Positions 16,007-63,679 of a stretch of DNA of 64,000 bases are shown here, piece after piece. Position numbers and translations under genes: made by a program. Source of the DNA: a virus; IMG/VR virus record IMGVR_UViG_3300045988_149331, positions 1 to 64,000 of that record; one strand, 5' to 3'. How positions within the stretch are numbered: position 1 is the stretch's first letter; every line of letters starts with the position of its first letter. Below the pieces are notes generated by a model, which ran no database searches, was not told where the DNA came from, and saw nothing but the letters and a program-made list of their open reading frames with translations.

Positions 16007-16008
16007 CG

Positions 16009-16797: not shown

Positions 16798-16825
16798 CGT
16801 CTTAAATTTACATCAGTTATACTTG

Positions 16826-17272: not shown

Positions 17273-17277
17273 GAGCG

Positions 17278-40171: not shown

Positions 40172-40981
40172 CTACACCTCCACCGCGTCAAAGTCAATAT
40201 CAAATTTCTTGTACACAATTCGCAACTCCGGTACGCCGTTAATTGGCTTCTTCTTTTCGTCAATACGAGCGTTCAACGGCCAGCGCTTGAGTATGATGTC
40301 GTGCGCCCGCTGCACGCGCTCCTGGCGTTCGTATACGTCTTGGAGACCGCCGCCCTGGTTGGCTTCCTTGTTCATCTTACTCTGGAGAAGGAACCGCACG
40401 AACCGCGCGTAGACGATTCCCAGGTACATGCATTTCAACGAATAGTCGATGTCGCATTTCAACTCCAACTTTTCGTCAAAGTCCAGTTCCAGCGTCCGTA
40501 GCCCCTTGAAGACGATCAAGTGTGGAATACCGCCGTACTTGAAGCGCGGGCTGACGTCGGTACAACTCCAGTCGAAGGCGCTCTTGCCCATCGTTCCATA
40601 CTCAAAATCGGTTTCCATGACCTCGCGATCAAACTCCTCAAAGAACTCGCTGAGTTCTTCCGGCGTTTTCAACGACAGCCCACACTTGGCTTCACCGTCG
40701 ATCGAGTAGAAGAAGTTGGCGATGTCGTCATCCATCACCACCACCGGGTGGTTCTTGCGGAGGTAGGTGTTCTTGCAGAAATTTACCACGTAGCTGTAGC
40801 CGCGGTTCGAGGCCGGCAGCACAATCAGCCGCTCACGGGCGTGACCCGCTTCGACGTATTTTTCAACGTCCTCCTTTTCGACCACAATATTGTAGTCAAC
40901 GCCGCCCTTTTCCAACAGTTTAGTCGTGACGCACTTGGGGCGGTTCTTGGACACGACGAAGAATTGACAGTTCATACTCAA
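40172..40981 (-). CDS. GT-A-like glycosyltransferase (TET/JBP-associated-GT-like), paralog of 57887..58702
   Basis: 'FFVVSKNRPKCVTT', 'VVVMDDDI', 'KMNKEANQGGGLQDVYE...RWP'. Each aligns with the corresponding segment of 57887..58702. Confidence 0.5.
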   Translation of the reverse strand: MSMNCQFFVVSKNRPKCVTTKLLEKGGVDYNIVVEKEDVEKYVEAGHARERLIVLPASNRGYSYVVNFCKNTYLRKNHPVVVMDDDIANFFYSIDGEAKCGLSLKTPEELSEFFEEFDREVMETDFEYGTMGKSAFDWSCTDVSPRFKYGGIPHLIVFKGLRTLELDFDEKLELKCDIDYSLKCMYLGIVYARFVRFLLQSKMNKEANQGGGLQDVYERQERVQRAHDIILKRWPLNARIDEKKKPINGVPELRIVYKKFDIDFDAVEV

Positions 40982-41658
40982 AAGGGTAATTCACCTTCGG
41001 ACCATATTTCCTCGGGTGGGTTTTGTTCTATGAAACGTTGATATTTGTCTATCGTAGGCTCCAGCGACGGGTAGAACCTAAAGGCAAGTTCCCACTTGAC
41101 GTCAAACATATCGTCGCACGGGACTTTGCGCTTCATCAACACATTTTCGTTGTTGTAGCACTGAATTGTGACTTGCTGACGGCCACGCGAAGTGTACGAA
41201 TAGGGAAAGTCGCGATAGTACTCAGCCAGCGAAACCGTATCTTGAACAACGTCGTGAATGAACTGATTGAAGGGGTGTCCCAGCCCCAACGGCGCCAATA
41301 CGGTATAACCACGGTTGCGTCGTAGGAAACGACGCAAATGGTCGCGAAGCGTTTGTTCGGCGAAATTAAGCGTGTCAGTTCCGTATTTAGTTCTGAGGTA
41401 CGTATAGACGCTGGAGAGATTAAAGTCCTTGAAATGGTCGCCAAAATCGCTACAAATCGCATCTTCGAACCCAGTGTCGAAGACATCCATCGTAATACCC
41501 ATGAATTCATAGAGCGATCGCTGTTCTACAACGCGGTTTGGGTCGCTATCTACAGTAAGCACCCGAACGTCATATTCGGGTGCTACTAAAACGTGACAAG
41601 CGCTCATCAGGAGATCACCCGCGTGAGGCTCGACACACAGGTACTTTATTTTTCCCAT
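40978..41658 (-). CDS. PIG-L/LmbE-like deacetylase
   Basis: 226 aa. 'KYLCVEPHAGDLLMS' (HxxD strand, compare AHPDDE), 'VRVLTVDSD', 'GLGHPFNQFIHD'. Confidence 0.45.
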   Translation of the reverse strand: MGKIKYLCVEPHAGDLLMSACHVLVAPEYDVRVLTVDSDPNRVVEQRSLYEFMGITMDVFDTGFEDAICSDFGDHFKDFNLSSVYTYLRTKYGTDTLNFAEQTLRDHLRRFLRRNRGYTVLAPLGLGHPFNQFIHDVVQDTVSLAEYYRDFPYSYTSRGRQQVTIQCYNNENVLMKRKVPCDDMFDVKWELAFRFYPSLEPTIDKYQRFIEQNPPEEIWSEGELPF

Positions 41659-42605
41659 GGCCGCTTGTAGATTTTCTCAGCGCAGGGGCCGTCTTTCGAC
41701 ACGTCCTCAGCCATCTTCCGGATTTCCGGCGTGATAGGCGGCAGCGTTTGCTTACCCATTTTGTCAGGCAGGAAGCCGACGCGGACGCTTACGTGCGTAC
41801 ACCCCTGACACGGGCGGAAGCGGCGGTCGTTGTTGTACAGCATGACACGGGCGGCGTGAAAGCGCGGGTGGTTCCACAGGTCTTCGATGGGCATGTCGTG
41901 GATGTTGGCGATTGGGTACTCACCGCGGAAGTCATCACAGCACAGACACACCTGGCCATTCCACCTCACGTCCAGTTCGCGGAACGGGAAGGTGCACCGC
42001 TTGTTGTTGAACGAATCGTCAAGCGGGAAGGCCGCGCCGCAGTGGTTGGCCAGGCGACGTGTCATCTTGTTGGTGTCGTCGTGGGCGATAGGCGGCAGCA
42101 AGCAGATACGACGGCCCTGCTTGGGGTAGTAGTACGGAACGCCGGGTTCCAGCGTCACGACGTTGTACTTATCAACATCGATCTTCTCGACGAAATTCCA
42201 GTCGCCGTTGGCCGTGTAGCAGTCCACCAGAATATCGTTCATACCTGCTCCGAACAGCGCGTCGAGGTACGCCTCGGTGTCTTCAGCGTGGTTCATGGCG
42301 TAACCGTTACTGTACATATGAAACACAGCCTTCGGCAAGTGCTTGCGGAACGTGGCGACGATGTCGATGAAGGCAGGATTCAGCGTCGGTTCGCCGTGCA
42401 TAGCGAACACGAACTTACAGTTCCAACCCACCCGCGCTACCTCCGAAGCAATACGCTCGGCCGTTTCGACGGTCATGAAATTCCAGGGCTTGGTCCCCTT
42501 TTCACGCATACCGTGTAAACCGCAGAACGAACAACCGAGGTTACAGCCCTCGGTAGGTTCAATCTGCATGGTAAACGGGGGGTCTTGTACGATTTTGTTT
42601 TTCAT
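41646..42605 (-). CDS. radical SAM enzyme with a Cys-rich SPASM/twitch-like C-terminal domain
   Basis: CxxxCxxC 'EGCNLGCSFCG'. C-terminal 'RCTFPFRELDVRWNGQVCLCCDD...RPCQGCTH'. Confidence 0.8.
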   Translation of the reverse strand: MKNKIVQDPPFTMQIEPTEGCNLGCSFCGLHGMREKGTKPWNFMTVETAERIASEVARVGWNCKFVFAMHGEPTLNPAFIDIVATFRKHLPKAVFHMYSNGYAMNHAEDTEAYLDALFGAGMNDILVDCYTANGDWNFVEKIDVDKYNVVTLEPGVPYYYPKQGRRICLLPPIAHDDTNKMTRRLANHCGAAFPLDDSFNNKRCTFPFRELDVRWNGQVCLCCDDFRGEYPIANIHDMPIEDLWNHPRFHAARVMLYNNDRRFRPCQGCTHVSVRVGFLPDKMGKQTLPPITPEIRKMAEDVSKDGPCAEKIYKRPWEK

Positions 42606-43537
42606 TATTTTGTAACTTTAATGTTGAGTTTCACGTTCTTTAACTTTGGGTCTTTGAACTGACGCTTGACGGGCTTGGTGAAAGCGCGGGTTGCGGGGTC
42701 CCAATCGAAATTATCAGGCTTGTAATTAACCTGACACCGGCAGTAGGGGTGCGTCGGGTTAATCGTAGGGAGCCACTCTGCCGCCTTACGACCGATGTTG
42801 TTACCGTTAGCGATAAGGTCCGCCAAACGGAACAGTTTCGGTTTCGAGGTAGGGTCCTCGGGGTCTTCTAAGTACAACTCCCGGCACTTAGCGCACGCGC
42901 CTGGATAGACGTCGAAATACACTTTGGCGTCAGGCCCGTGTTGCTTGAAAATACTTTCAGCACGGCCCACGTTGTAGGCTTCGTGCAGGAGATAGTACGC
43001 AATACGCAGCCAATCGCGTCCCCAGTCTTGGGTAAGGTTTCCCAGTTCGCTGGCTACATAGCGCGCCCCCTTACGGAGTTGAACGGCTTGAATGGCCTTA
43101 TCTTTGATTTGCTGGCGTATAGCGGCCTGCTGACGGAAATTCGACTTGAGGATGGTGTTGCGTGTCCCGGTGACGATACGGTTGCCAAGCGATGTGATGT
43201 CGGTGTAGGCGCGGTTCTTGAGGTAATTGAGGGCGTTCTCTTCCTGTTCAGTGAGCGGTACAAAGTTTCCTGATTTCAAGAACTGAAGAAACTGTTTGTA
43301 GTTCATCTTCTTGGCGCGGGTATCGCCGATAGCCTCAGCCAAGATTCCAAACAGAAAGGCGTGTTCGATTATACCCTTAGAGTTCTTGTACTTATCGACG
43401 TTGACGCCTGACGCCACCAAGATGTCGATCTCCGACTGGGTCAGAAAATCCAATCCGACGTGCTTAGCAATAAACAGGTACTGCCAGCGCCGGAGAATAC
43501 CGACCATGTCGTCTATTTGGCGGTTATTGAAAATCAT
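42605..43537 (-). CDS. MuF-like (SPP1 gp7 family) minor head protein
   Basis: C-terminal 'INPTHPYCRCQV' matches the PxxHPNCRC signature of the Phage_Mu_F family. Confidence 0.7.
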   Translation of the reverse strand: MIFNNRQIDDMVGILRRWQYLFIAKHVGLDFLTQSEIDILVASGVNVDKYKNSKGIIEHAFLFGILAEAIGDTRAKKMNYKQFLQFLKSGNFVPLTEQEENALNYLKNRAYTDITSLGNRIVTGTRNTILKSNFRQQAAIRQQIKDKAIQAVQLRKGARYVASELGNLTQDWGRDWLRIAYYLLHEAYNVGRAESIFKQHGPDAKVYFDVYPGACAKCRELYLEDPEDPTSKPKLFRLADLIANGNNIGRKAAEWLPTINPTHPYCRCQVNYKPDNFDWDPATRAFTKPVKRQFKDPKLKNVKLNIKVTK

Positions 43538-44678: not shown

Positions 44679-44850
44679 CTTCCTTTAATTCTTTTACCGC
44701 CGCAGCCGTAGCGTCGGCGATGTATTTTAGTACATCGCCTAACGCAGCGGCGTTGTTGGCGTTCCATTCGCGGATAAACCGATCTTCGTACTGAGTAACG
44801 GTGGGGAATGGCGACGGCAAAAAGTGGGTATGTTTGGCGTTGTAAGGCAT
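44632..44850 (-). CDS. hypothetical small protein
   Basis: 72-aa ORF with a 1-nt overlap with the upstream gene. Confidence 0.4.
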   Translation of the reverse strand: MPYNAKHTHFLPSPFPTVTQYEDRFIREWNANNAAALGDVLKYIADATAAAVKELKEDGPKKNNLGRVSSEG

Positions 44851-46604
44851 TACTCTTGTTTGCTATCTTCCGGCAACCATTCCATTAAGACACGATTTCC
44901 TTCAATCTTATGGACCTTATAATTTTGGTCTCGGCCAATTAAAAATTCCCCCTCCTCTCCTCCGTAAACCCCTACTACTGGAGCAACCGGGCAACCCGCG
45001 GGAGCGATAATATCAAAATACATAGTCCCCTCGTCGTTGCTAATTTCAGGATAACATGTAGTGCTCATGAACGACTTATCGCTGAACACCTCCCCCTCCT
45101 TGAGATTTTTAACGAAATTATCTGCATCGTTTTCAAACGTAAGTTTCCTGTATAAAACGATATTTTGTCCCACTTTATTTTGAGAAATAAACGTATCAAT
45201 TCCGTTTATGAATTTATCCATTTTATCAGACGATACATCGACTTTGTTGCCGTAAAGGTATTTTCTCATTACAGCAAAGTCAAGATCATCATCTTCGTCA
45301 AAATCGTCATCATGGTCTGCGGAATATAAAACAATAGCTTTTACTGCATCCGAATCGCTTTCGTCCATGAAATCCTCATAAGCGTCAACAATCTTATCAA
45401 AGAATTCAGTTGCATCGTCGCTGTTTAATCGTATGAATTTTTCGCCGTTTATGTCCAACCCACTTTTCCGTAAAGCCCATTTGTACGCTCTATCGGCCTT
45501 TTTGAGAACTTTTTCATTCGCCTTGTCAGAGGGTAATCGCTCAATGTTTTTCGCAGTACTGTCGCCTGATAATGAAATATTAAAACGTTCATTATCTGCT
45601 TCAAATTTCTTTTGTTCTTCTGCTTTTTCCCTTTTAACATCCTCGCTTTTTACCCAAAAAGCGATAGCGTCGTCTTTTGTGTCTTCAGGCACGATATTAT
45701 TTCTTTTCAAGACATCAATCGCCTTTTTAGATAATTCTTCGGGGGTTAATTTATACTTTGAATACTGTTCGTCGGTCTTTCGTAATTTACTCAAAAAGAT
45801 GCCAGCTATCGTCTTTGGTGTATCGCTACCTCGTACTTGATCCAGCAAATCTTTTTCGAATTTCTCATCAACGGCATCTTCGTCTTTATTGTCGTCATCC
45901 TTTTCACTACCCTCCCTGGCGTCAGGATCGCCGAACTTGGACGCGGCTCCCTCGACGTCAGCGATCTCCTTCACCGTCGTGGTCTCGAAATTGTCAACAT
46001 CGGCGTAGGGGTATTTGTCCACGCGGTAGCCTTCGCTGGTCTTGGTGACTACCAGATCGAAGCCGTCTTCGTCGCCGCCGACCTGCTTGATGAACGCGTG
46101 AGAAGCGTCTTCGACTCCAGCGTACTGCTCCAGGTCCTGGTCGTCCATCTGACGGAAGCCCATGGACTCAAACGAGGCCGTCGCCTTGGCGTCACCGTCA
46201 GCCAGGCCGTTACGCAACGAGGCGTCGCCCTTCTTGTTCTTGGCGCGAACGTTCACGCCGCGGCGTTCGAGTTCTGCGGTGGCCACCTTGCGCATTTCAG
46301 CGTCAGCCGACGGATCGTTAGCCACTTTCACCAACGCCTCCTCCGAAGCCGAGCGGGCATGATTCTGGAGGCTGACGTTGCCTCCGGGAACGCCACCTTC
46401 ACCCCCCTCAGCCGCGGGGTCTTTCTCCTTGGCTGCGTGACCGTACTCCTGACCCACACGTTGCAAGCGGCGGTTTTGAGCGTTGTCGGTGTATACACCG
46501 TGACGCGCTTTTTCGATTTCTACCTCTTCAGTTTCGGGGATGTTGACGAACCCCTTGAGGATTTGCTGTCGTTTTGCCTCACCGTAGTTGATAATCTCTT
46601 TCAT
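44850..46604 (-). CDS. candidate packaged effector with a C-terminal R-S-E ADP-ribosyltransferase domain (Alt/C3-like)
   Basis: 'NIVLYRKLT' (Arg), 'KSFMSTTCY' (S-T-T), 'GGEEGEFLIG' (ExE). The N-terminus carries 'EKARHGVYTDNAQNRRLQRVGQEY'. Confidence 0.65.
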   Translation of the reverse strand: MKEIINYGEAKRQQILKGFVNIPETEEVEIEKARHGVYTDNAQNRRLQRVGQEYGHAAKEKDPAAEGGEGGVPGGNVSLQNHARSASEEALVKVANDPSADAEMRKVATAELERRGVNVRAKNKKGDASLRNGLADGDAKATASFESMGFRQMDDQDLEQYAGVEDASHAFIKQVGGDEDGFDLVVTKTSEGYRVDKYPYADVDNFETTTVKEIADVEGAASKFGDPDAREGSEKDDDNKDEDAVDEKFEKDLLDQVRGSDTPKTIAGIFLSKLRKTDEQYSKYKLTPEELSKKAIDVLKRNNIVPEDTKDDAIAFWVKSEDVKREKAEEQKKFEADNERFNISLSGDSTAKNIERLPSDKANEKVLKKADRAYKWALRKSGLDINGEKFIRLNSDDATEFFDKIVDAYEDFMDESDSDAVKAIVLYSADHDDDFDEDDDLDFAVMRKYLYGNKVDVSSDKMDKFINGIDTFISQNKVGQNIVLYRKLTFENDADNFVKNLKEGEVFSDKSFMSTTCYPEISNDEGTMYFDIIAPAGCPVAPVVGVYGGEEGEFLIGRDQNYKVHKIEGNRVLMEWLPEDSKQE

Positions 46605-49942: not shown

Positions 49943-50200
49943 TTAGCGTGAATATAGGTAGGCGGTACGGTCGTCCCAAACGAAATTGAAACTCATATCC
50001 CCTTGAGGATATTCCGTGATGGTAATGCCGTTGGCGGTTGTTTCACGTTCGATACGCCAGCCCGGCTCTCCCTGGCCTGTGCCGATAGGGGCATATCCGC
50101 GATACACGGTCCCCTCAGTGGAAGCGTCGATGATAGGCTTCGGCATGGCCTCCGAAAGCAACTGCACGATGGGTGCAGTATTCTTCTCGTTACTCGTCAT
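49943..50200 (-). CDS. hypothetical protein
   Basis: 85-aa ORF directly after the portal gene. Confidence 0.45.
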   Translation of the reverse strand: MTSNEKNTAPIVQLLSEAMPKPIIDASTEGTVYRGYAPIGTGQGEPGWRIERETTANGITITEYPQGDMSFNFVWDDRTAYLYSR

Positions 50201-51956
50201 GATCTATTGCTTTTTGTAAGTATTCGTCAAATGCGGCCACGAGCGGGTTTGCCTCACGGGCCTTCATAGTCTCTTCGTCGTCGCCTTGGGCGTAAAGGTC
50301 AAACGGGTTGCCGCCCTGGGCGTCGGCGTCTTCTTCGCCTTCACCACCAGCCACAGGCTCATCAGCCGGGCCGCCTGCTGCCTCCATACCCATACCAGCG
50401 GCCTCTTCGAATGGGTTTCCACCGCCCATTCCCATACCGCCCATCGCCTGCTGCTGTTGCTGCTTGGCGCTGAGGGCTTGTTGAATAACGGAGTTTTCGA
50501 TAGTATCACCACCCTTTTCTTCGCCGATGGCGGGGAGGTCCCACTTTTCGCGAATTTCATCGACGGTCTGGAAGGCTTGAAGGCGTTTGATGTCCATATC
50601 CAACTCCTCGGAAATAGTCATTCCGTTGAGGCCCATGAACACGAACTCAAAGTCAGGGTTAATCTGGTCAACGATGAACTTGTTAATCTTACGCTGGATG
50701 AACTTCAACAGCGGATACAGACCCTTGTCTTTCGACTGCTCCATACGTTGTTTTTGGCCATCGCCAAACGTCAGGCCGCTGTTGTTAGAACGTGATATGT
50801 CCCAACCGATTTCCGTCGGGTCGATACAGTACACAGCGCAAGCGATCTTAATCAGGTATTCCATCCAAGACGTGTACTCCATATCACGGTTGTTCTTCTG
50901 GAGGTCTACCCAGTCAATATCACCTTCGACGACAGGCGTCTTCCACGACTGCATAACGCCTGAAATCATCGCCTGCCACTGCTGTTTGAACTGCTGAAGC
51001 GAAGCCTCGTTGACGTTGCCCTTGATACGCAACAGACCCTTCGGGGCTGACCCCTGTGAGAAGAAACGGCGGTTGTACTCATCACCCCAAAGCATCGACG
51101 TGACGACGTTGATCAACTCTTCCAACTCGGAGTTCCCGTAGCCGTTAGCGTAGATAGACGTTGACGGGTTGCGGATTCCAAAGCACAACTCCCATGGATA
51201 GAACTGTGCCACCTTGGCTGTTTGGTACACCTGGACGTAGGCCGGGTAGTAACCGTCGATTTTTTGCCCCCAGTTTTGGCGGTCATCCATCATTACGCCG
51301 CGGAAATACGGGTTGTCGTATTCACCATCAAAGTACGAATCTGCCAACCGGAACGTAGCAGCGTCTACAGCCTGGAAACGTACCAATTTACCGCGGCGAT
51401 TGCGGATACATTCAAACGTCAGCTGGTCGAACGTCAACGAGTCGTCAACGATCTTACGTATGAACTCGTCAAATTCGTCACCATCCCACGCAGCAGTATC
51501 GCCACAGTTTAGGATGAAGTCCGTGATGGACGAAGCGATCTTGCAGTCTTGGGAGTCCATTTTCTGCTCCATACCGTGACGCGGCTTGCGTCGAATAACG
51601 AAGCCCGTCGAATAGCGGTCGGCCTGCGGTTCAGCAAAGTCGGCCACCTGATTCTTACGGGTCTTGATGATGGAGTTGATAATGGGGGTGCGGCTCATCC
51701 GGCGCAGCGTCTCGTACGAGAGTGAGAACGGCTTATCCTTGTAACCCAAAAACGAGTTGAACTCCAACGGGTCGATGAGATATGCCTTGGGGGCCACGTT
51801 GGCGGGCTTGCTTTGCTGGTTAAATATTTCGGCCGCTTTGAGTATGTCGGACGGGTTATCACCACGCAGCGCCTTCTCCACCAACAGCGATTTGCGGATG
51901 GTCAAGGCTTGCATGGCGCGTTCTACCGATTCCAATCTTTCTTTTACACCGGACAT
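50190..51956 (-). CDS. portal protein
   Basis: 588 aa, first gene of the head module. Acidic Gly/Met/Gln-rich C-terminal tail. A MuF-like gene lies in the same module. No family signature verified. Confidence 0.6.
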   Translation of the reverse strand: MSGVKERLESVERAMQALTIRKSLLVEKALRGDNPSDILKAAEIFNQQSKPANVAPKAYLIDPLEFNSFLGYKDKPFSLSYETLRRMSRTPIINSIIKTRKNQVADFAEPQADRYSTGFVIRRKPRHGMEQKMDSQDCKIASSITDFILNCGDTAAWDGDEFDEFIRKIVDDSLTFDQLTFECIRNRRGKLVRFQAVDAATFRLADSYFDGEYDNPYFRGVMMDDRQNWGQKIDGYYPAYVQVYQTAKVAQFYPWELCFGIRNPSTSIYANGYGNSELEELINVVTSMLWGDEYNRRFFSQGSAPKGLLRIKGNVNEASLQQFKQQWQAMISGVMQSWKTPVVEGDIDWVDLQKNNRDMEYTSWMEYLIKIACAVYCIDPTEIGWDISRSNNSGLTFGDGQKQRMEQSKDKGLYPLLKFIQRKINKFIVDQINPDFEFVFMGLNGMTISEELDMDIKRLQAFQTVDEIREKWDLPAIGEEKGGDTIENSVIQQALSAKQQQQQAMGGMGMGGGNPFEEAAGMGMEAAGGPADEPVAGGEGEEDADAQGGNPFDLYAQGDDEETMKAREANPLVAAFDEYLQKAIDHDE

Positions 51957-51993: not shown

Positions 51994-52317
51994 TCAACCC
52001 AACATTTTCAAAATGTCGTTGCAGGCCGTTTTCCTGATTATCAACGCTTGATGAACGATATCTCCCCACACCGCCAACTGATGACCGCGCCATGAGTAGT
52101 AGTCGGTTTGGTCATCGTACGAACCTTGCCACTCGCCTTCGCTGCGTATAGTAGCCACCAAACGGCGAAATGCTCGCTGTTCGTCGGTAGTGAGGGGTGA
52201 TATAAAAGTGCCGACGACTACTAATCGTGCGGCACTCGTTGTTAGATCATCGGCTAACGTTTGAAAGTTAATGCCCATGAACTCACCTGTCTCTAATGGG
52301 GTATGAAAAGTTATCAT
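51994..52317 (-). CDS. hypothetical protein
   Basis: 107-aa ORF with a 4-nt overlap with the upstream gene. Confidence 0.5.
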   Translation of the reverse strand: MITFHTPLETGEFMGINFQTLADDLTTSAARLVVVGTFISPLTTDEQRAFRRLVATIRSEGEWQGSYDDQTDYYSWRGHQLAVWGDIVHQALIIRKTACNDILKMLG

Positions 52318-53324
52318 TCGCCAACCAATTTTACAGTTCGTGGTTCAAAAGTAGAGCGTTGCTTACCTTCACCGATGCGCATCTTCCAGTATTTTTGATA
52401 TTCACACAACCACATCTCGATCTGGTGAAGGGTTATATTGCCGTGAGGCGTTGTGTAATATCCTGCTTCGAGTTTGTGCCAGTGTAGGTACGGAAAATCT
52501 CCAAATGTCGCCAACGCCACCTGCGCTTCATCACGCAGACGATAGATACCGTCAATTTGACGTTTCAACGACGGGAATATTAACCGCAACCCAATCGACG
52601 CCCCAGGCCCCACGTTAGTGTAGTCATCCTGAGTGAAACGCATGAAACGCCGATATGTATATCGCGGTATATAGGTGAAATCTTGATAGAATTCGTGAGC
52701 GATGAATGCAGCCGATGACGGAAGCCCCTGAAGGAACTTGATGATCTGTTCAGGAGTTTGGGCCGTAAATACCATCTTGATGAGTTCACCCAAGCGACGG
52801 TGTAACGTAGGCACTACCAGATGGGTGTAACAGTAATCACGCGGTTTACCCGGCGTGGCCATGGAATTGATGAGATATGCCGTGGTGTAGGGGTTGTTCC
52901 CCGAAGCGCGGTACGACGTTATCATCTCTGCAAAAGCGTCTTCGTCGTAGCTGTCGTAATCTGGAATACCAGCGCCCCAGCCATACTTATCGCGAGCGTA
53001 TTCAAAAGTACTGGGGTTGTTGAAATACCGGAACACCATCATCTTCCACACCAAGCTGGCTAACGACAATGAATCATCCAACAGAATATTTCGAATTTGC
53101 CACTGGGAATTTCGATCCAGTTCGCGGTACACGTTAGTGAACTTGTAGTCGCGCAAAATAGGGTCTTCAGTCCAGGGGCGTGGTTGGTGATCGATGAAAC
53201 GTCGTTTCCAGATCATTTGCCGCTCAAACATCGTGCGAAAGAACTCCGTGCGGTGTTCGTCGCTCACGTCAAGCGTATCAGATGGGAGTTTGTCACTCCA
53301 AGAATAGTGATCAAAGTTTGCCAT
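52314..53324 (-). CDS. aGPT-Pplase-like protein (putative thymidine hypermodification transferase family)
   Basis: 'FERQMIWKRRFIDHQPRPWTEDPILRDYKFTNVYRELDRNSQW' matches my recollection of the family's N-terminal signature (R..G.P.PWT.DPIL..Y+FTNV.R.LDR.(S/T)). Predicted all-helical, 336 aa. Confidence 0.5.
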   Translation of the reverse strand: MANFDHYSWSDKLPSDTLDVSDEHRTEFFRTMFERQMIWKRRFIDHQPRPWTEDPILRDYKFTNVYRELDRNSQWQIRNILLDDSLSLASLVWKMMVFRYFNNPSTFEYARDKYGWGAGIPDYDSYDEDAFAEMITSYRASGNNPYTTAYLINSMATPGKPRDYCYTHLVVPTLHRRLGELIKMVFTAQTPEQIIKFLQGLPSSAAFIAHEFYQDFTYIPRYTYRRFMRFTQDDYTNVGPGASIGLRLIFPSLKRQIDGIYRLRDEAQVALATFGDFPYLHWHKLEAGYYTTPHGNITLHQIEMWLCEYQKYWKMRIGEGKQRSTFEPRTVKLVGE

Positions 53325-53625
53325 TTTGTTTACAATAGCTTCGTATCAGCAATTCACGGCGCGCTTCAGAGGTCTTTCCAGCCAGCCGGAACAACGTAGC
53401 ATCAGGCAAGTTCTTCAGTGGTCGTTTAGCTGCATTTACAAGACGCGCTTCGTCTATAACGAGGTTTACCCTTATCCGCCGCCCGCGGATCAATTTGACG
53501 GACTCTGCAGCGAGCAGTGGACAATAATCGTTACCGTGTAACGAACGTACAATAAACGTCATCGAACCCCAAACCTCAGGGTCTGCAACGACGTCGCCTA
53601 TTTTGAAATATCTCCATCGGTCCAT
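53311..53625 (-). CDS. hypothetical protein
   Basis: 104-aa ORF. Confidence 0.5.
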   Translation of the reverse strand: MDRWRYFKIGDVVADPEVWGSMTFIVRSLHGNDYCPLLAAESVKLIRGRRIRVNLVIDEARLVNAAKRPLKNLPDATLFRLAGKTSEARRELLIRSYCKQNGKL

Positions 53626-53711: not shown

Positions 53712-54383
53712 CTAAAACCCGAACACCGTCAGCTGTCGAGGCGACAATTGATAGCGTTCGTTGTCGGAAAGATTAGTCTCGAGAATTTCACACGCCTTGA
53801 TGTCGGTAGCGACATTGGCGTACTCACGGACCTTATCGTTGTACTCCTGGCGGCACTTACGCATTTCGGGAGTAACAGGGTTCTCCTGCTCTTCGCCGGC
53901 AATGAGCGATCCTGCAACTTTAGGACCTTCACAGAGGTCGCATGCCTGCCACGAGAAGATGCGGAACGGAAAATCCATCTTGATCTCCGCAGTCCACCAG
54001 GGCGGAACGGTCTCGGTAGGAGCCCCGCCGCAGTCTTCGAGTTTGCTCTCGATTTCAGCCGTCAGGACTTGGAGTTTAGCGTTCAGCGGCGGAAGAATAT
54101 CGGCCTTCAGTTTAGCCTTGATTTCCTTGCCCAGTTTGCCGAACTTGATGTTAGAATCGTAGCTGATGGCGTTCATGATGTCCGATTTCTCGATCTCGCC
54201 CTGAAGAGCCACGTCGCTATCGCCGGACTCAGCCTTTTCGATAGCCCCGGCCATCTTCTCGAAAACGTTATCAGCCTTTTCGACCTTTTCCTCAGGGTCT
54301 TCGGAAACCGGAGCGAAGCCCTTCAGCATGTGCTCTTGACGCTCAGCGCGAACGCCAAGAATGATATCACGAATGTTTTCCAT
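53712..54383 (-). CDS. hypothetical acidic protein
   Basis: 223-aa ORF. Confidence 0.55.
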   Translation of the reverse strand: MENIRDIILGVRAERQEHMLKGFAPVSEDPEEKVEKADNVFEKMAGAIEKAESGDSDVALQGEIEKSDIMNAISYDSNIKFGKLGKEIKAKLKADILPPLNAKLQVLTAEIESKLEDCGGAPTETVPPWWTAEIKMDFPFRIFSWQACDLCEGPKVAGSLIAGEEQENPVTPEMRKCRQEYNDKVREYANVATDIKACEILETNLSDNERYQLSPRQLTVFGF

Positions 54384-56482: not shown

Positions 56483-56758
56483 TTAACAATCCATCACTAA
56501 ATTTCCCGCCAACTCCAACTCATACAACCGTTCAGCATCAGGCTTGGCGTAACAGAATATCAACTTTCCACCGCCCGCAGCCCGCAACGCTTTACGATAC
56601 GTCGCCTTGATGCGGGCCAACTCTTCGCTTCGGTAAAAATCGTAGTCGCTTACACACAACTCCCACCACCGCTCTTGCCGCGACGCCCAGGCTATGACTC
56701 CTGGGCGTTCGGCTTCAATCCGCTTTACAGCAGCTAATAACAGCGCGTCGTGTTTCAT
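56483..56758 (-). CDS. hypothetical protein
   Basis: 91-aa ORF. Confidence 0.5.
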   Translation of the reverse strand: MKHDALLLAAVKRIEAERPGVIAWASRQERWWELCVSDYDFYRSEELARIKATYRKALRAAGGGKLIFCYAKPDAERLYELELAGNLVMDC

Positions 56759-57342
56759 AACGTTTCGTCGATAGACTGCGCCAACTCAGCCAACAGCCTT
56801 ACGTGTACGCGCTCGTCGGCGATAATCTTGTTGAGGAGTTGAACCGCCAACGTAGAAGTAGTGGTCGGCGTAGGGTTGCCTGCTTGGATGCGCTGGATGA
56901 GTTTTTCGTACTCAGCGATGGTGTCCTGCTCGGCGCGAATATTGATCTGGATGGCTTCAGCCGCGCTTTCGGTCGTTATGTCCACTTTGGCTGCCGAAAA
57001 CACAGGCTTCGATACCGCGTGACCCAGATGGTGAATGAAGTCGCCTAATCGGTCGTAGTGCTTCATCTCGGTGAGGGCGATACCCAGGAACGTTTCGCCA
57101 ATCTGATCGAAAAGCATCCGCTGTTGGGTGTATTGGATGATGGCGGTGAGTTCGGACGTTCCGGTAATTCCGGCGTAGACTTTGTAGAACCACTCGGCCG
57201 GAACGCCGTCGTCGGCTTTAGCCTTGGAGATGTCGGGATAGTCAATCGCGTGGTCGGCGTAACGCATCGACTCTACCAGCGCGTCGGCCATGATTTCGAC
57301 GTTGTCCTGCTTGGCGGGTTGGTGTACGAGAATCGTTTTCAT
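56755..57342 (-). CDS. ferritin-fold di-metal protein, CotJC / Mn-catalase-like
   Basis: Four-helix pattern 'SELTAIIQYTQQRM', 'IALTEMKHYDRLGDFIHHLG', 'NIRAEQDTIAEYEKLI', 'IIADERVHVRLLAEL' (two E...ExxH pairs). 195 aa. Confidence 0.55.
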   Translation of the reverse strand: MKTILVHQPAKQDNVEIMADALVESMRYADHAIDYPDISKAKADDGVPAEWFYKVYAGITGTSELTAIIQYTQQRMLFDQIGETFLGIALTEMKHYDRLGDFIHHLGHAVSKPVFSAAKVDITTESAAEAIQINIRAEQDTIAEYEKLIQRIQAGNPTPTTTSTLAVQLLNKIIADERVHVRLLAELAQSIDETL

Positions 57343-57344: not shown

Positions 57345-57890
57345 CTATTTGGTTTCAGGTTCTTGGCTCTTGACGGTCGATCCCCATCCTGCTTCGCCGC
57401 GAGCGCTGGGCGTGAGTTCTTCGACGAGTGTAGGTTCAATCAACGGCGCAGGCACAATCACCAGCTGAGCAACGACGTCGCCCTTCTTGTACGCCTTACA
57501 TTCGTACGACAGCTCCCGCATTTTGAAGTCGGCGATAGTCCCTAAGACGTTGGAGAACAACACCGCCAAACACCGCGACATACGCTGCCACAGCGTGGGC
57601 ATGTGATAGATCTTTTTGTAGCGTACCAGCATCTCGCCACGGTACCCCGGGTCGATAATACCCGGCGCGTTACACATCACCAGGTCCATCTTCGACACGC
57701 GCGAGTTGGGGACCAGCAACCCGCTGTACCCTTTGGGAATTTCAACGGCGATTCCCGTCTGGTACTCGATGAAATCTTCGGTTTCGCGTACTCCAACGGC
57801 TACCAGGTCCAAGCCGTTATCCTCGCCATCGGCGTGGGCATACGCCGGCAACGTGGCGTTGGGGTTGAGTTTCTTGAATTTTACGTTCAT
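57345..57890 (-). CDS. dut: trimeric-type dUTPase with an internal insertion
   Basis: Five motifs present: 'NGLDLVA', 'PNSRVSK', 'GIIDPGYRGEM', 'VVAQLVI', 'RGEAGWGST'. Confidence 0.8.
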   Translation of the reverse strand: MNVKFKKLNPNATLPAYAHADGEDNGLDLVAVGVRETEDFIEYQTGIAVEIPKGYSGLLVPNSRVSKMDLVMCNAPGIIDPGYRGEMLVRYKKIYHMPTLWQRMSRCLAVLFSNVLGTIADFKMRELSYECKAYKKGDVVAQLVIVPAPLIEPTLVEELTPSARGEAGWGSTVKSQEPETK

Positions 57891-58702
57891 TTCTTGTATC
57901 CTTTTAAGTGTATTTTGACCTCGATCATCTCACGGTCCTTCATTTCACCACCCCAGTTGGTACACTTTTTGGTACGGAGGGTGATGTACTCGGGGAACGC
58001 TTCTCTTAAACGTTGTGATTCGGCGTTGGAGTTCTCGATCGTACGATAAATCGAACAACCACCAGCGGCGTTGGCTCCCGTCATTTTGTCGAACGAATAC
58101 TGATACGAGACGATATTATCCAACCCCGCGCGGCGTAATCCACACGCCACGGCGAAATCCTCCTTTATGGGCCAATCGCTGAACCTGACAGGCTGACTTA
58201 GATACTGGGCGATATTGAGGCCCCAAATGGAGAAGAACCGCCCGTTTATTTGTACGTCGTGTTCCTTGTCGCGGTTGAACGGACGGTATGAAAGCGCAGC
58301 CACGGCGTAGGTGTCTAACTGCTCAGCCACCCAGTCGAACATCATCTGGTAGATGTATTCCTGCGCCTCGACGGTGAAATTGTCGTTGTTTACGACCACA
58401 GGGGTCTTGGCATCGTCTAAACGCAACGAGAAAGACACGTTATCGTCTAAGAAAAAGACTCCTCCAAATCCCCTATCAACGGCCTCTACAACAATATAGT
58501 CCCGTATGTCCCCCACGCCGCGACACGCCGTACTGTATTCCTCGATACTGGCTACTTTTCCACCCCAGTTGCGCTGGTGAGCCGCCAACTCGCCGGGGTG
58601 ACAGAATATGTGGACGCGCTTCAACGCTTCAGGCGTCAACCGTTGAAGAGTTTTTTGGCGGTCAACACGACCTCGTGTGAATAAGGCTATCAGAGTTTTC
58701 AT
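57887..58702 (-). CDS. GT-A-like glycosyltransferase, paralog of 40172..40981
   Basis: 'LIALFTRGRVDRQKTL', 'VFFLDDNV', 'KMTGANAAGGCSIYRT...EAFP'. Confidence 0.5.
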   Translation of the reverse strand: MKTLIALFTRGRVDRQKTLQRLTPEALKRVHIFCHPGELAAHQRNWGGKVASIEEYSTACRGVGDIRDYIVVEAVDRGFGGVFFLDDNVSFSLRLDDAKTPVVVNNDNFTVEAQEYIYQMMFDWVAEQLDTYAVAALSYRPFNRDKEHDVQINGRFFSIWGLNIAQYLSQPVRFSDWPIKEDFAVACGLRRAGLDNIVSYQYSFDKMTGANAAGGCSIYRTIENSNAESQRLREAFPEYITLRTKKCTNWGGEMKDREMIEVKIHLKGYKK

Positions 58703-58721: not shown

Positions 58722-61442
58722 CTAACCTAACATGTCGAACTTAAATCCCGTCGTCATACGCGAAGCCGCCAAGTCAGCCAACCAGAACGAAGACGAAATA
58801 TCGTCATGACTGCCGACGCTCTCCAGCCCCTTTTCGGTGAAGGCTACTGAACCGAGGTCTTGGAAGATGAGGTCCTTGACCTGCTGTGAATAGACGTTCC
58901 CCACCGGGATGTGAATCTTACCGCGTTCGAACAGCGTCGATAGGTGGGGCCATCCGGTCTTGAGGTCATATTTGTCGATTCCAGTTGTATGGCCGATGAC
59001 GGGCATCCCTTCGGTATCAGCTGTTTCGACGAATATCTGCTGAAAGGTGTTATTCTCCATCACGATCAGGTCAGGCCGGAAACGGGAATTTATACGCCGC
59101 AAGACATTCATCTGCTCGAAGAACTTGGCGCCTTTTTCGCGGTAAAGGTGAAGCAGCCAACGCTCATCAGTCAGTTCGTCAATACCCCACACGCTGAATA
59201 CCGCGTAGTCAGCGCCGACGTTGGCTGAAATAGCGAAGTCACAGCCAACGACTACCTTGGAGAACTTGATGGGGAACTCTTCGCGTGAATCCACCAGCGT
59301 GTATTTCTCCATCCTCAGCAGCGACCGCGTGAGAATTTCCATCGGGAAAATAGACGATTCGTTGGTGATCGGGCGGCAAAGGTTCTCGCGCGAGAAGATG
59401 ATCGACCCCTGGGTCTCCTTTTTATCCATCAGATCCTTAAACGACCAACGCTGCGGCCACAATATTCGCCCGTTGGGGAAGATGGCCGGATATTCGATAA
59501 CGAACCAACCGTTCTTGGTCTTCAGGTCGCCATAAAGGTCTTCAGCGTGAAACGGTGTACCGACGACGATAATTTGGCCGCCAGGTACGAGCATGTTCAT
59601 AATTACGGAGTGGAAATAGTCGGTGGATTTGTTCCGTTGGAGAGCCGAATAGATGACGTTATCCTTCAGACCATCATCGACGATAATCCAGTACGGGTGA
59701 GCGCCACGCACCGAAGAACCAAAACCCTTGCCTGTCAAACGCGCGCCGTTACGGCACACTATATTGGTAGCTGACCAGTTGGCTGACGTTGACTGAGGAT
59801 AGAGTCGTTCCTTCAAGATTTCGTTTTCCTCGATGGTACCCTTCAGAATCTCCAAAAGGTCAACGCTCTGTTGTAACGAGAACGAAAACAGAAATCCGCG
59901 GTTCGACGACGCCACGGTGGGACGCTTCGAATAACGAACGCTTGACGGCTTTTTGTAGCGGTACAACTGCCACGCTGCGTAGGCGTTGGAGAAGTAGAAC
60001 GAGTTGTGAGCAACCGTTCCGTCGCCCAGTACGAAGCGATGGTCGCCATCGGTGGTGATCGAGACATATTCCCCTTCGCCAACAGGCGTGATCTTCAACG
60101 ACGATACCACCGTAGGGTGAACACCATCGATAGTTCCCCAGTCTTTGTGTGACGTCTTGGTAGACCAGTCGGTTTGGACCTTTTTACGGGCTATTTTCAC
60201 GGGGATTCGATCCAGTTCGCCAGAAATAGTTACACACCACGACGAATAGTCACGCCCTAACGCCTTACAATACCGCGTTCCACCGCCCATTCGCGTACAG
60301 AAGCCAAGACTGTCGGCCAGGTTCTTCACGTCACACACCAGCTGGTAGTTCGTATTACCGAAGTGATAGCCACCCTGCCAGTAGTTACCGTCGGAATCGA
60401 TCAACCCAGCCAACACCTGGAGGCGGACTGCTTCGCTGTTGACGAGATACTGCTCTGGAATGTGTTTATTGTAAAGCAGGTTGTAGCCCTTCAACACCCT
60501 TTCAATCGGGTTACGCTTACCGCGACCCCGAACGCCGACTCCAAGCGTCACGACAAGTCCCTTTTGGCTGTAGCGAAGCCCCGTGCGCTCGGCGTAGCCG
60601 CGGAGATATTCACGCACTTCAGGGTCGGCGGTGGTGATCTTCTGGTTGTTGGAGTTGCCGTCACCTAACCAGTACCCCAAGAAATACGGCTCCAACGTCA
60701 CAGGCCGTGCTGGATATTGTACCGCTACCTTGAAACCACGATAACGTTCCTTGATCCAGTTGGGGGTCTTACTTAACAGGGTCGGCATATCAATGTCCAC
60801 TATCCGCTTCGACGCTGTATCGATGGAGCCGTTGCGGTCCTTTTCGATCAGCGTACAAATGTGACGCGAATTGACCGTGTAACTATCACCGCGCGACTGG
60901 TCGATACGGTACATCGTGGAATCGTGACCGCGGTGCGTAGCCACCACACGGCGTGGTGTAGAGTTGATACCCATCAACAGATCGCCAACCACAACGTCTT
61001 CTACCCTCTTGATGGTTCCGTCGTACATCCTCACTGGTGTTCCAACAGCCTCACATTTCCCGTGGTCACGAGCAGCGTTGATACACAGTTTCTTGTGCTG
61101 GTGAACTAAATCGCCCCACTCCAGGTGGTGCCACGATAGTTGAAAGTCGGGGATAACGGAAGTGATGAAATACGTCAAATTGGCACACCGCAGCGTGTCT
61201 TCCACCACGGCAGAAATATTCTCTTCATAGCGCGGCTTAAAGTCGATCGACGCGTCACCTGTGTACATCACCTTGTAGGTGTCTTCCATCAACGCCGCGA
61301 ATATATCGTCAACATCGTGTGAGTCGCCACTCATCAACTCATTCAGTCCGCGCTCATCCAGCCCCTCGATTATTTCATCAACGAGGTCCAGGCACGCCAA
61401 ACGGTGCGTCACCGACGGCGATATAATAGTGTCTAAACCCAT
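58722..61442 (-). CDS. terL: terminase large subunit interrupted by an intein
   Basis: Exteins join to give Walker A 'AARDHGK|S'. Walker B 'YWIIVDDG'. C-terminal nuclease-like part 'VVVGCDFAIS'. 906 aa minus the 351-aa intein leaves 555 aa. Confidence 0.85.
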   Translation of the reverse strand: MGLDTIISPSVTHRLACLDLVDEIIEGLDERGLNELMSGDSHDVDDIFAALMEDTYKVMYTGDASIDFKPRYEENISAVVEDTLRCANLTYFITSVIPDFQLSWHHLEWGDLVHQHKKLCINAARDHGKCEAVGTPVRMYDGTIKRVEDVVVGDLLMGINSTPRRVVATHRGHDSTMYRIDQSRGDSYTVNSRHICTLIEKDRNGSIDTASKRIVDIDMPTLLSKTPNWIKERYRGFKVAVQYPARPVTLEPYFLGYWLGDGNSNNQKITTADPEVREYLRGYAERTGLRYSQKGLVVTLGVGVRGRGKRNPIERVLKGYNLLYNKHIPEQYLVNSEAVRLQVLAGLIDSDGNYWQGGYHFGNTNYQLVCDVKNLADSLGFCTRMGGGTRYCKALGRDYSSWCVTISGELDRIPVKIARKKVQTDWSTKTSHKDWGTIDGVHPTVVSSLKITPVGEGEYVSITTDGDHRFVLGDGTVAHNSFYFSNAYAAWQLYRYKKPSSVRYSKRPTVASSNRGFLFSFSLQQSVDLLEILKGTIEENEILKERLYPQSTSANWSATNIVCRNGARLTGKGFGSSVRGAHPYWIIVDDGLKDNVIYSALQRNKSTDYFHSVIMNMLVPGGQIIVVGTPFHAEDLYGDLKTKNGWFVIEYPAIFPNGRILWPQRWSFKDLMDKKETQGSIIFSRENLCRPITNESSIFPMEILTRSLLRMEKYTLVDSREEFPIKFSKVVVGCDFAISANVGADYAVFSVWGIDELTDERWLLHLYREKGAKFFEQMNVLRRINSRFRPDLIVMENNTFQQIFVETADTEGMPVIGHTTGIDKYDLKTGWPHLSTLFERGKIHIPVGNVYSQQVKDLIFQDLGSVAFTEKGLESVGSHDDISSSFWLADLAASRMTTGFKFDMLG
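60003..61055 (-). mobile_element. intein with a LAGLIDADG homing endonuclease domain (aa 130-480 of TerL)
   Basis: Starts with Cys (TGT at 61055..61053, after Lys). Block B 'NSRH'. Two dodecapeptides, 'LGYWLGDGN' and 'LAGLIDSDGN'. Ends 'VAHN' (AAC at 60005..60003) followed by Ser +1. Confidence 0.9.
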
Positions 61443-61512: not shown

Positions 61513-61989
61513 TCATCTCTTCACCTCCAGCGCCGTGGTGAGGTATTTCTCCATCTCGAGCGATTCACGCTGGTAGACTTCCTCGGGGTAGTCTTCCAGC
61601 AACAACCGCTTATAGCCTTCAACGGCATTACCCAGTAGCTGGGCGAGTTGTATGATTTTAGCCTTGTAGACCGCCGCACGGTCATCGGGGCTGAAGGCGA
61701 AGCAGAATTTTGTCTTGTTAGCGTCGAAGAATTTGACGTAGTTAAACGCGCTGAGCGTTTCAAGTAGTTCGAGTGCCGTGCGGTGCGACAGCGTTGTCTT
61801 TTTGACTACCTCGGTACGTGTGTAAGGCCGCTGGGCCGACATTTCAAGTTCCAGATGGTCCTTATTCAGAATACGAAGCAATTCGAGAGCCTTGGTGAAA
61901 GCCAATTGGCGATTTTCGTCTTGCTCGGTGAACTTTTGTGCCGCTGCTACCTCTTCGGGCGTTTGAGCGGCTTGTTTCTTATCTGCCAT
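61513..61989 (-). CDS. hypothetical protein, possible small terminase subunit (position only)
   Basis: 158 aa immediately upstream of terL, with a helix-turn-helix-like segment 'TLSHRTALELLETL'. Confidence 0.3.
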   Translation of the reverse strand: MADKKQAAQTPEEVAAAQKFTEQDENRQLAFTKALELLRILNKDHLELEMSAQRPYTRTEVVKKTTLSHRTALELLETLSAFNYVKFFDANKTKFCFAFSPDDRAAVYKAKIIQLAQLLGNAVEGYKRLLLEDYPEEVYQRESLEMEKYLTTALEVKR

Positions 61990-63525: not shown

Positions 63526-63607
63526 CACCCGAGTTGCCGTTCCTATTTACACTCCCGAAACTGCCGACAATGGGCGAACTGCCACAACATTCCGTCGGGT
63601 GAAAAAG

Positions 63608-63679
63608 TTGATCTGGAAGGGTTCGAACCTCCAATACGAGAACCAAAATCTCGTGTGTTGCCCATTACACCACAGATCA
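63608..63679 (-). tRNA. tRNA-Gln (anticodon UUG)
   Basis: Hand-folded cloverleaf, 72 nt, no encoded CCA. Acceptor TGATCTG/CAGATCA (7 bp). D arm GTGT-AATGGGCA-ACAC. Anticodon arm CGAGA-TTTTGGT-TCTCG. Variable TATT. T arm GGAGG-TTCGAAC-CCTTC. Discriminator A. Confidence 0.85.

Follow-up and report, generated by a model that had tools for sequence, protein, structure and literature searches.

What does a phage do with one protein of the thymidine-hypermodification toolkit when most of that protein's usual partners cannot be found around it? The question is raised by a 336-aa open reading frame (ORF) in a 64,000-nucleotide stretch of viral DNA, positions 1 to 64,000 of IMG/VR record IMGVR_UViG_3300045988_149331 (hereafter the window). 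This ORF, the target of the present analysis, runs from ATG to stop on the minus strand, as do all the long ORFs of the window. A first-pass annotation made from the letters alone had assigned it to the alpha-glutamyl/putrescinyl-thymine pyrophosphorylase (aGPT-Pplase) family and proposed that the phage makes a hypermodified, possibly glycosylated thymidine. The ORF was correctly called at 52314..53324, the peptide FERQMIWKRRFIDHQPRPWTEDPILRDYKFTNVYRELDRNSQW being found at residues 33-75 of its translation, and it does lie between the portal and large terminase genes, with 8 further genes separating it from the latter. In the current scheme of thymidine hypermodification, a hydroxymethylase, a 5-hydroxymethyl-deoxyuridine (5-hmdU) DNA kinase and a clade-2 transferase act in turn; every model hypermodifying phage also carries a clade-1 protein, which has no assigned function. 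The target is a clade-1 protein, and we give about an even chance to the reading that it is a catalytically competent enzyme acting on 5-hmdU DNA in the absence of any recognisable kinase or clade-2 transferase.

Pfam returns a single strong match for the target, to PF18723 (E 3.9e-51, 174.5 bits against a cut-off of 25), which spans residues 26-320 and profile positions 5-279 of 281. PHROG 2396 matches at 5.8e-50, NCBIfam gives no match, and a look-up of the exact target sequence returned no entry. PF18723 was formerly aGPT-Pplase clade 1 and is now named "HMUDK_hel", the 5-hmdU DNA kinase helical domain. The older usage persists in structural matches from BFVD ('Pplase1 clade 1') and in Lee 2018, where SP10 gp186C, PhiW-14 gp72 and ViI gp160 are called 'aG/PT-PPlase1' (PMC5889632). 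The family call of the first-pass annotation is therefore right in the old nomenclature, but the transferase activity quoted with it belongs to the sister clade 2, PF18724 (amino acid:DNA transferase, ADDT). The hmmscan comparison that it proposed gives clade 1 and not clade 2: PF18724 does not match the target even at E<=1, and the same profile recovers PaMx11 gp46 (1e-27), Sonora gp039 (2e-23) and M6 gp51 as positive controls. PF18723 is also matched by PaMx11 gp50, Sonora gp042, M6 gp55 and the C-terminal half of SP10 gp186, to which the target is 26-28% identical; its closest member in a cultured phage is at most 28% identical. Homologues are abundant in environmental sequence, with more than 700 in metagenomes at E<1e-5 and 3,104 matching clusters (phmmer, E<=1e-3) among 1.84 billion representatives. 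The best 150 of these 3,104 representatives are nearly all 290-400 aa long, so the standalone form is dominant among them. The fusion or adjacency to a kinase on which the Pfam name is based is not seen for the target, and since most members stand alone, kinase linkage is not universal to the family.

The AlphaFold2 (AF2) model of the target (predicted local distance difference test score, pLDDT, 90.3; predicted template modelling score, pTM, 0.89) is all-alpha except for one beta-hairpin and has a fold resembling that of helix-hairpin-helix (HhH) proteins. Foldseek against BFVD finds the SP10 5-hmdU DNA kinase (5-HMUDK, F8WQ30; E 1e-14, template modelling score, TM, 0.73), PhiW-14 C9DG43, phiRSL1 and the clade-1 entries, with an ADDT-domain protein at rank 11 (probability 1.0, TM 0.50). 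Among solved structures the best match is PaMx11 gp46, or PUGT (8z2n; probability 0.9, E 0.08), followed by the HhH glycosylases Ogg, EndoIII, MutY and AlkA, whose similarity is weak (E 0.24-8, TM 0.2-0.5).

Conservation was read from an alignment of 141 target homologues at 27-50% identity. R35, N64, R67, D70, F207 and G241 are conserved in 100% of the sequences, C307 and K311 in 99%, E308 in 97% and E303 in 91%. The target carries all the residues that are invariant in the family (91-100% across the 141 members), and from these a putative active site can be drawn: E303-x3-C307-E308-x2-K311 together with R35, N64, R67, D70, R99, F207, D215 and G239-P-G241. The GPG of the last element forms a hairpin, and among the residues conserved at 70% or more there is no Asp or Lys at the position expected of a glycosylase. 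MAFFT sets IE303-x3-C307 onto VETILC247 of PaMx11 gp46, and a deep hhalign comparison gives the same registration of E303 and C307 (E 9e-4 over 197 columns, probability 22%); hhalign with shallow profiles found nothing between the target family and clade 2. In gp46, Cys247 is the covalent nucleophile and forms an adduct at C6 (PMC11472151). The clade-2 Cys and its proximal Glu are essential (PMC8989533), and the clade-2 E-T pair ligates an essential metal (PMC13458397). Because its conserved Cys and Glu align with Cys247 and the metal-binding Glu, the target looks like an enzyme, and we infer that clade 1, as a paralogue of clade 2, is competent for catalysis and not a passive helical domain.

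The target agrees with the known clade-1 proteins (M6 gp55, PaMx11 gp50, Sonora gp042, PhiW-14 gp72, ViI gp160 and SP10 gp186C) in belonging to the same Pfam family over its full length, in predicted fold (TM 0.6-0.73), in the invariant residues, including IE-x3-LCE-x2-KY, and in occurring in phages with an SPO1-type dUMP hydroxymethylase. Unlike them, it is neither joined to nor next to a P-loop 5-HMUDK, and neither a kinase nor a clade-2 enzyme was found elsewhere in its genome; it is coupled to a KOW/Tudor-like protein of 104 aa, and it sits in a late block between terminase and portal, whereas the known members sit in a block of replication and nucleotide-metabolism genes. The clade-2 enzymes (AADT, DADT and PUGT, that is, M6 gp51, PaMx11 gp46 (8z2m/8z2n), ViI gp247, PhiW-14 gp109 and SH-Ab 15599 Pplase2) share with the target a related HhH-like helical fold, a putative Glu-x3-Cys correspondence and their occurrence in 5-hmdU phages. 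The similarity is nevertheless remote, with hhalign at E 9e-4 and Foldseek TM scores of 0.4-0.5. The Cys is followed by Glu in the target family (97%) but by Lys in clade 2, and the target has about 45 more residues and an N-terminal motif of its own, FTNVYRELDR.

The window is a segment of a tailed-phage genome that encodes a portal, an SU10-like major capsid protein, a baseplate J protein, an M23 peptidase, an intein-bearing large terminase, a DEDDh exonuclease, a FEN-type 5'-3' exonuclease and a superfamily 2 helicase. When 24 kb of the window were compared with cultured phages by Megablast, no match was obtained. The window ends inside a DnaB-like gene, which means that the genome continues past it. 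A scan of viral contigs yielded 80 target-bearing loci, on contigs that cluster at about 97-103 kb, and one contig of 199 kb holds the target twice, at a spacing of 100,136 bp, from which a genome size of about 100 kb is deduced. With 80/80 loci carrying it at 54-99% identity, the target is about as well conserved as the portal, and its gene belongs to the core of a large clade of uncultured phages with genomes of about 100 kb.

The first-pass annotation had stated that the hydroxymethylase and the kinase required by its proposal were missing from the window, which holds true, and had suggested looking for both in the rest of the genome. That region was surveyed in close relatives (88-99% identity), the outward walk using those 97-99% identical to the window in nucleotide sequence. 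Past the low end, the genome continues with DnaB, four unannotated ORFs of 319, 143, 210 and 352 aa, a protein of the Thymidylat_synt family and an intein-bearing DNA polymerase III alpha subunit (Pol III alpha). Beyond the high end there are about 20 small unannotated ORFs and then HU, and the remaining arc encodes a YfbR-like HD 5'-deoxynucleotidase, RecA, an SbcCD-like pair, UvrD and a NUMOD3 endonuclease. The ThyA-like gene (408-409 aa; 408 aa on the walk) is located about 4 kb beyond window position 1, as read on contig L178 (97-98% identical). Its product keeps the catalytic Cys and has an Asn at the uracil-specifying position, and among cultured phages it comes closest to the dUMP hydroxymethylases of SPO1 (gp29), SP10, SP8, SP82G and Goe9/10, at 44-47%, followed by those of M6-like phages. 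It is thus predicted to be an SPO1/SP10-type dUMP hydroxymethylase and not a thymidylate synthase, and it co-occurs with PF18723 in at least 22/24 contigs of 90 kb or more. Of the two partners sought, the hydroxymethylase was found in the relatives, and no 5-HMUDK was found in the genome of about 100 kb.

Pfam scans covered about 50 window proteins and 22 proteins of the remaining arc, with precomputed Pfam assignments for both flanks. No PF18748 or other kinase-type P-loop domain, no PF18724, no TET/JBP dioxygenase and no pyridoxal-phosphate enzyme was found in the window, its flanks, the arc, the 80 target loci or 80 ThyA loci, and none of the scans of window, arc and flanks matched AAA_33, Zeta_toxin, dNK or PF18748. 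No flavin adenine dinucleotide (FAD)-dependent tailoring enzyme was found, and there is no kinase within 10 kb on either side of the target in the 80 loci. A custom hidden Markov model (HMM) of the kinases found nothing in the window lineage, while recovering those of RHph_I65 and of contigs L172 and L083/L149; a custom ADDT model found nothing in any ORF of the clade and scored E 4.1 for the PhiJL001 homologue. The ORFs of the interval between DnaB and ThyA contain no Walker A motif. A 585-aa protein with Walker A and B motifs (38379-40136) was considered as the missing kinase and set aside: it has no Pfam or PDB match, its motif lies mid-chain in a long charged protein, it shares only its N-terminal ~100 aa with other proteins and it is not conserved beside the target.

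A few distant members of the clade do carry small kinase-like P-loop genes. One is HMUDK-like (5e-8; L083:5706-6305, equivalent to L149:6115-6714), and others, in L135 (669-1145) and L171, resemble PNK/AAA_33. A canonical kinase partner is therefore sporadic in the clade and falls outside the window lineage.

PF18723 and a hydroxymethylase without a recognisable kinase also occur together in a cultured phage. PhiJL001, a phage of an alphaproteobacterium with a genome of 63.6 kb, clusters a PF18723 protein (gp19), a glycosyltransferase homologous to one in the window (gp22; 4e-13 by BLASTP and 4e-15 by phmmer), an SPO1-type hydroxymethylase (gp24) and a dCMP deaminase. Its complete genome, searched with the profiles used for the clade, has no kinase or ADDT, and no description of its DNA chemistry was found in the literature searched. 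PhiJL001 is an unrelated siphovirus (Mesyanzhinovviridae) in which these genes form a tight cluster in the replication module, whereas in the window clade tens of kb separate the three genes, of which the glycosyltransferase is accessory. It is an independent recurrence of PF18723 with a hydroxymethylase and without kinase or ADDT. RHph_I65, taken as a positive control, yielded the canonical set of kinase, ADDT, PF18723 and ThyA.

Around the target the gene order is strict: TerL, then DUF2786/DUF7168, FEN, the 223-aa protein, the 104-aa protein, PF18723, an ORF of 107-121 aa and the portal. The features of this block are:

58722..61442, minus strand: large terminase bearing a LAGLIDADG intein, marking the upstream limit of the region (PHROG 38)
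53712..54383, minus strand: conserved 223-aa ORF upstream of the coupled trio, present in 77/80 loci
53311..53625, minus strand: 104-aa core partner ORF, KOW/Tudor/SH3-like, present in 76/80 loci (AF2 model, pLDDT 88.6)
52314..53324, minus strand: the target, a standalone PF18723 protein (Pfam, PHROG, AF2 model)
51994..52317, minus strand: 107-aa ORF whose ATG overlaps the target stop (ATGA)
50190..51956, minus strand: portal, downstream boundary, 37 nt past the coupled trio (PF04860)

The target ATG lies 14 nt inside the 3' end of the 104-aa ORF, and these overlaps indicate that the target is translationally coupled to both the 104-aa and the 107-aa ORFs. The 104-aa protein is modelled as a KOW/Tudor/SH3-like beta-barrel with a helical hairpin, and it weakly but consistently matches the KOW domains of NusG/Spt5 and the Tudor domains of PcrA and UHRF1; this predicted fold argues against the partner being an enzyme itself. 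Neither the 107-aa nor the 223-aa ORF has a Pfam or PHROG match. A scan for promoters and terminators around the operon gave counts equal to those in shuffled sequence. In 20 distant loci (e.g., L053:11091-12182) an FkbM-family methyltransferase (PF05050) directly follows the PF18723 gene, which suggests an alternative tailoring step there, for example O-methylation.

These observations can be combined into a pathway. The SPO1-type hydroxymethylase would make 5-hydroxymethyl-dUMP, with the dUTPase and the HD nucleotidase shaping the nucleotide pools, and 5-hmdU would enter the phage DNA. The PF18723 protein would then work on the DNA polymer, flipping out 5-hmdU or a derivative so that Cys307 could attack C6 with the help of Glu308, Lys311 and Glu303, the last of which would bind a metal or act as general acid, as in clade 2. 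Attack at C6 would activate the exocyclic carbon at C5 for exchange of its substituent. Co-expression with terminase and portal suggests a step after replication, around packaging, in which the 104-aa protein would probably serve as a binding adaptor. In the sub-lineage of the window, glycosyltransferases may in addition glycosylate hydroxymethyl groups, as a layer upon the conserved PF18723 step. A more specific version, which we think rather unlikely to hold as stated, is that clade-1 proteins are autonomous Cys-dependent enzymes on unphosphorylated 5-hmdU that generate a C5 methylene by dehydration and pass it to a lineage-specific nucleophile or reductant. Were this true, clade 1 could supply the missing conversion of 5-hmdU in DNA to thymine, an activity that Lee 2018 describes as unknown (PMC5889632), or be the installer of glutamate in SP10, which makes glutamyl-thymidine with a clade-1 domain only and no clade 2 (PMC5889632). 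It would also mean that a gut-associated clade and PhiJL001 reach a new base, which may be a glycosylated thymidine derivative, without using a kinase.

Several points weigh against a catalytic role on 5-hmdU. No activity has been proven in the literature for any clade-1 protein, and neither the 2024 structural paper (PMC11472151) nor the 2026 dapT paper (PMC13458397) mentions one. M6 gp55, itself a clade-1 protein, is dispensable for the formation of N-alpha-GlyT in reconstitution (PMC8989533); this, with the lack of a PF18724 match, means that the amine-appending activity is not simply transferable to the target. Pfam treats PF18723 as a helical appendage of the kinase, and the homology of the active sites across the clades is weak (hhalign probability 22%, Foldseek E 0.08, failure of shallow profiles). 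The hydroxymethylase is assigned by similarity, and the rest of the genome is represented by close relatives as stand-ins. The kinase search was based on sequence profiles in a genome where about 40 small ORFs are unannotated. The glycosyltransferases are missing from most members of the clade, so glycosylation cannot be the conserved role. Chemically, the leaving group in a pathway without a kinase would be hydroxide instead of phosphate, which is harder.

Part of this evidence fits a non-catalytic helper, a base-flipping module that binds DNA or 5-hmdU and either presents hydroxymethyl-uracil to glycosyltransferases or methyltransferases or shields it from host glycosylases. The fusion of PF18723 to the kinase in SP10, its adjacency to kinases in M6, PaMx11, Sonora and RHph_I65, the in vitro result with M6 gp55 (PMC8989533), the coupling to a KOW/Tudor-like adaptor and the variety of neighbouring tailoring genes (a TET-associated glycosyltransferase, TAGT, in 21 loci and an FkbM methyltransferase in 20) all speak for such a module. 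It would, however, be hard to explain why a helper keeps a Cys that is 99% conserved, is flanked by Glu and Lys and aligns with the catalytic Cys of gp46; the kinase to be assisted is absent here, and the standalone architecture dominates the best 150 representatives. We consider this role unlikely, if worth keeping in view. A little less probable again is the canonical pathway with hidden partners, in which a kinase and transferase too divergent or non-orthologous to be recognised take 5-hmdU through 5-PmdU to an amine or amino-acid adduct. Such kinases are indeed hard to detect, the proven one of PaMx11 barely matching PF18748 (E 0.002). HMUDK-like P-loop genes occur sporadically in distant clade members (L083/L149, L135/L171), and both the four unannotated genes directly upstream of the hydroxymethylase and the Walker A/B protein at 38379-40136 offer candidates, though doubtful ones. 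Against them stand the Pfam scans and the custom kinase and ADDT models, which are empty for the window lineage, the lack of a Walker A motif between DnaB and ThyA and the lack of conservation of the 585-aa protein beside the target. The same absence in PhiJL001, which is cultured and fully sequenced, also argues against hidden partners.

The resemblance of the fold to Ogg, EndoIII, MutY and AlkA raises a different function on an HhH-glycosylase scaffold, namely a glycosylase or lyase directed at T or U in host DNA that leaves the hydroxymethyl-uracil DNA of the phage alone, or a role in repair or anti-defence that has nothing to do with making a modified base. Its neighbours, among them FEN, the DEDDh exonuclease and DUF2786, are nucleases and replication proteins, and a means of telling self from host DNA would be useful to phages that replace T by hydroxymethyl-uracil. 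But the TM scores are low (0.2-0.5), among solved structures the transferase gp46 matches best, and the conserved signature is the Cys/Glu of enzymes that attack C6 rather than the Asp/Lys of HhH glycosylases. The family is moreover restricted to hypermodifying phages and is absent from SPO1, whose hydroxymethyl-uracil is plain (Lee 2018, PMC5889632); SPO1-like phages do not appear by name among 451 tblastn matches. This explanation seems to us quite improbable. Finally, the position beside the portal, a weak match to PHROG 800, 'terminase small subunit' (5.3e-6), and RefSeq labels could suggest a packaging protein. The RefSeq entries so labelled, SP10 gp186 (NC_019487), PaMx11 gp49 (NC_028770) and M6 gp54 (NC_007809), are biochemically proven 5-hmdU DNA kinases (PMC8989533 Table 1), and the label is therefore an annotation error that has spread through PHROG 800. 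The HhH-like all-alpha fold matches the transferase and glycosylases and not the oligomerisation fold of small terminases (TerS), for which better candidates lie directly upstream of TerL (61513-61989 and 61979-62668). A small terminase is thus effectively refuted, and we leave it hardly any weight. The mislabelling reaches further homologues such as PAKlein3.

A dUTPase, two glycosyltransferases, a radical S-adenosylmethionine (SAM) enzyme and a deacetylase had been cited in support of the hypermodification proposal. The first four are confirmed by Pfam and are all accessory:

57887..58702, minus strand: TAGT1, a TET-associated glycosyltransferase (PF20691) directly downstream of the terminase and homologous to PhiJL001 gp22 (Pfam, E 1.1e-12)
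57345..57890, minus strand: dUTPase-fold protein (dUTPase/DCD-like) with the motif GIIDPGYRGE (Pfam)
41646..42605, minus strand: radical SAM + SPASM enzyme with the cluster motif CNLGCSFC (Pfam)
40978..41658, minus strand: 226-aa ORF, the proposed deacetylase (LmbE-like EPHAGD motif, by eye)
40172..40981, minus strand: TAGT2, a divergent second PF20691 glycosyltransferase (Pfam, E 5.3e-13)

TAGT1 is found in 21/80 loci, the dUTPase in 26/80, the radical SAM enzyme in 9/80 and TAGT2, within reach of the target, in 6/80; these genes are confined to close relatives, whereas the PF18723 gene is core. The two glycosyltransferases had been described as paralogues, and both do belong to PF20691, but they are not close paralogues and do not detect each other in searches. 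The deacetylase could not be substantiated, as the 226-aa ORF has no sequence match in Pfam, PHROG or PDB. By analogy with the dTTPase/dUTPase of phage SH-Ab 15599 (PMC13458397), the dUTPase likely supplies dUMP or excludes dUTP, possibly dTTP. The radical SAM enzyme shows no similarity to that of SP10 (gp185); a DNA-linked sugar, a base or a peptide are possible substrates. TAGT2, the 226-aa ORF and the radical SAM/SPASM gene overlap one another and form a three-gene insert (40172-42605) in the head-morphogenesis region, shared by few relatives, whose products may act on a DNA sugar, a base or a virion protein. It adjoins a minor head protein resembling Mu-F/SPP1-gp7 (42605-43537); this 310-aa ORF was also considered as a hidden dioxygenase or modification enzyme and was rejected by eye, since it ends in HPYCRC, typical of Mu-F/SPP1 gp7.

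PF20691-type glycosyltransferases, often near the terminase, are shared with the phage 5mYOX (TET/JBP) pathways (Burke 2021; Pyle 2024; PNAS 2026 T-dioxygenases), in which, as is predicted for the window, a 5-hydroxymethylpyrimidine in DNA is glycosylated. The window differs in that no TET/JBP was found and in that hydroxymethylation would precede replication through the ThyA-type enzyme, a combination described as rare. A hydroxymethylase accompanied by sugar transferases but not by the usual kinase and transferase partners suggests that phage DNA modification has a variant not yet described. It is not a new kind of system but a variant of known thymidine hypermodification.

The portal is about 40% identical to those of Herelleviridae (SPO1-like and SP10-like), and this, together with the 44-47% identity of the hydroxymethylase, makes the clade a distant relative of the classic hydroxymethyl-uracil phages. 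It differs from them in its genome of about 100 kb and in an intein-bearing DnaE-type Pol III alpha; SPO1 itself has no PF18723 protein, and in SP10 PF18723 is fused to the kinase. The nearest cultured portal, at 42% identity, is that of Chryseobacterium phage MA9V-3. This phage was rejected as a model, as homologues of the target, of FEN and of the SPO1-type ThyA are all missing from the 63 kb of it examined, which carry folE/queE instead. Among isolate genomes and metagenome-assembled genomes (MAGs), the single match is to a 97-kb contig in the bin of an uncultured Bacteroidales MAG, and the clade is probably associated with Bacteroidales.

Other features of the genome touch these subjects less directly. 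In close relatives the YfbR-like HD 5'-deoxynucleotidase (L189:14502-15200) stands right after Pol III alpha; in M6 and PaMx11 an HD hydrolase stands right after the hydroxymethylase, and those proteins are not detectably similar to that of the clade. The placement may reflect convergent clearance of dTMP or dNMP, and the notion that the clade protein is the counterpart of M6 gp59 and PaMx11 gp52 was dropped, there being no significant similarity beyond the HD motif. The intein in TerL consists of Hint and LAGLIDADG domains, and the relatives L005 and L177 have an intein-less TerL of 555 aa; Pol III alpha, just outside the window (L178:18061 onward), also bears an intein. Between the dUTPase and DUF2786, a ferritin/rubrerythrin-like di-iron protein (56755-57342, minus strand; 50/80 loci) could be an oxidase, a hydroxylase or related to ribonucleotide reductase (RNR). 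In relatives the variable region between TerL and DUF7168 (e.g., L314:4028-4285) is a hot spot of accessory genes next to the terminase, including Tad2-like and Sequestin/crAss001_48 anti-defence-type domains, NrdD/class II RNR, a HAD hydrolase, a sigma factor and homing endonucleases. A tRNA-Gln (UUG; 63607-63679, minus strand) occupies a non-coding stretch upstream of the exonuclease; in MA9V-3 a tRNA-Gln lies beside HU in a comparable position. A 584-aa protein (44850-46604, minus strand) has a C-terminal ADP-ribosyltransferase toxin domain and shares its N-terminal segment of about 100 aa with the 585-aa Walker A/B protein; this segment recurs in proteins of relatives and may be a virion-incorporation or ejection signal for cargo. 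In an unrelated phage of 85 kb (L172, IMGVR_UViG_3300020576_004226), positions 15257-20024 encode two HMUDK-like kinases, an FAD oxidoreductase like PaMx11 gp47 and a weak ADDT match. Together they probably make up a 5-NmdU-like pathway of the PaMx11 type in a new genomic setting.

In the abundant uncultured clade and in PhiJL001, clade 1 and the hydroxymethylase are the sole members of the known toolkit. Because no kinase or clade-2 enzyme was found in either genome, the window protein and PhiJL001 gp19 offer a clean test of the function of clade 1, which could bear on the conversion of 5-hmdU to thymine in DNA, on the glutamyl-thymidine of SP10, on new enzymes for the site-specific derivatisation of DNA and on the mapping of 5-hydroxymethyl-uracil. 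For the phages themselves, the results describe Bacteroidales-associated gut phages whose genomes probably contain hydroxymethyl-uracil and are possibly glycosylated, and such genomes matter for reading the sequencing and restriction biases of viromes.

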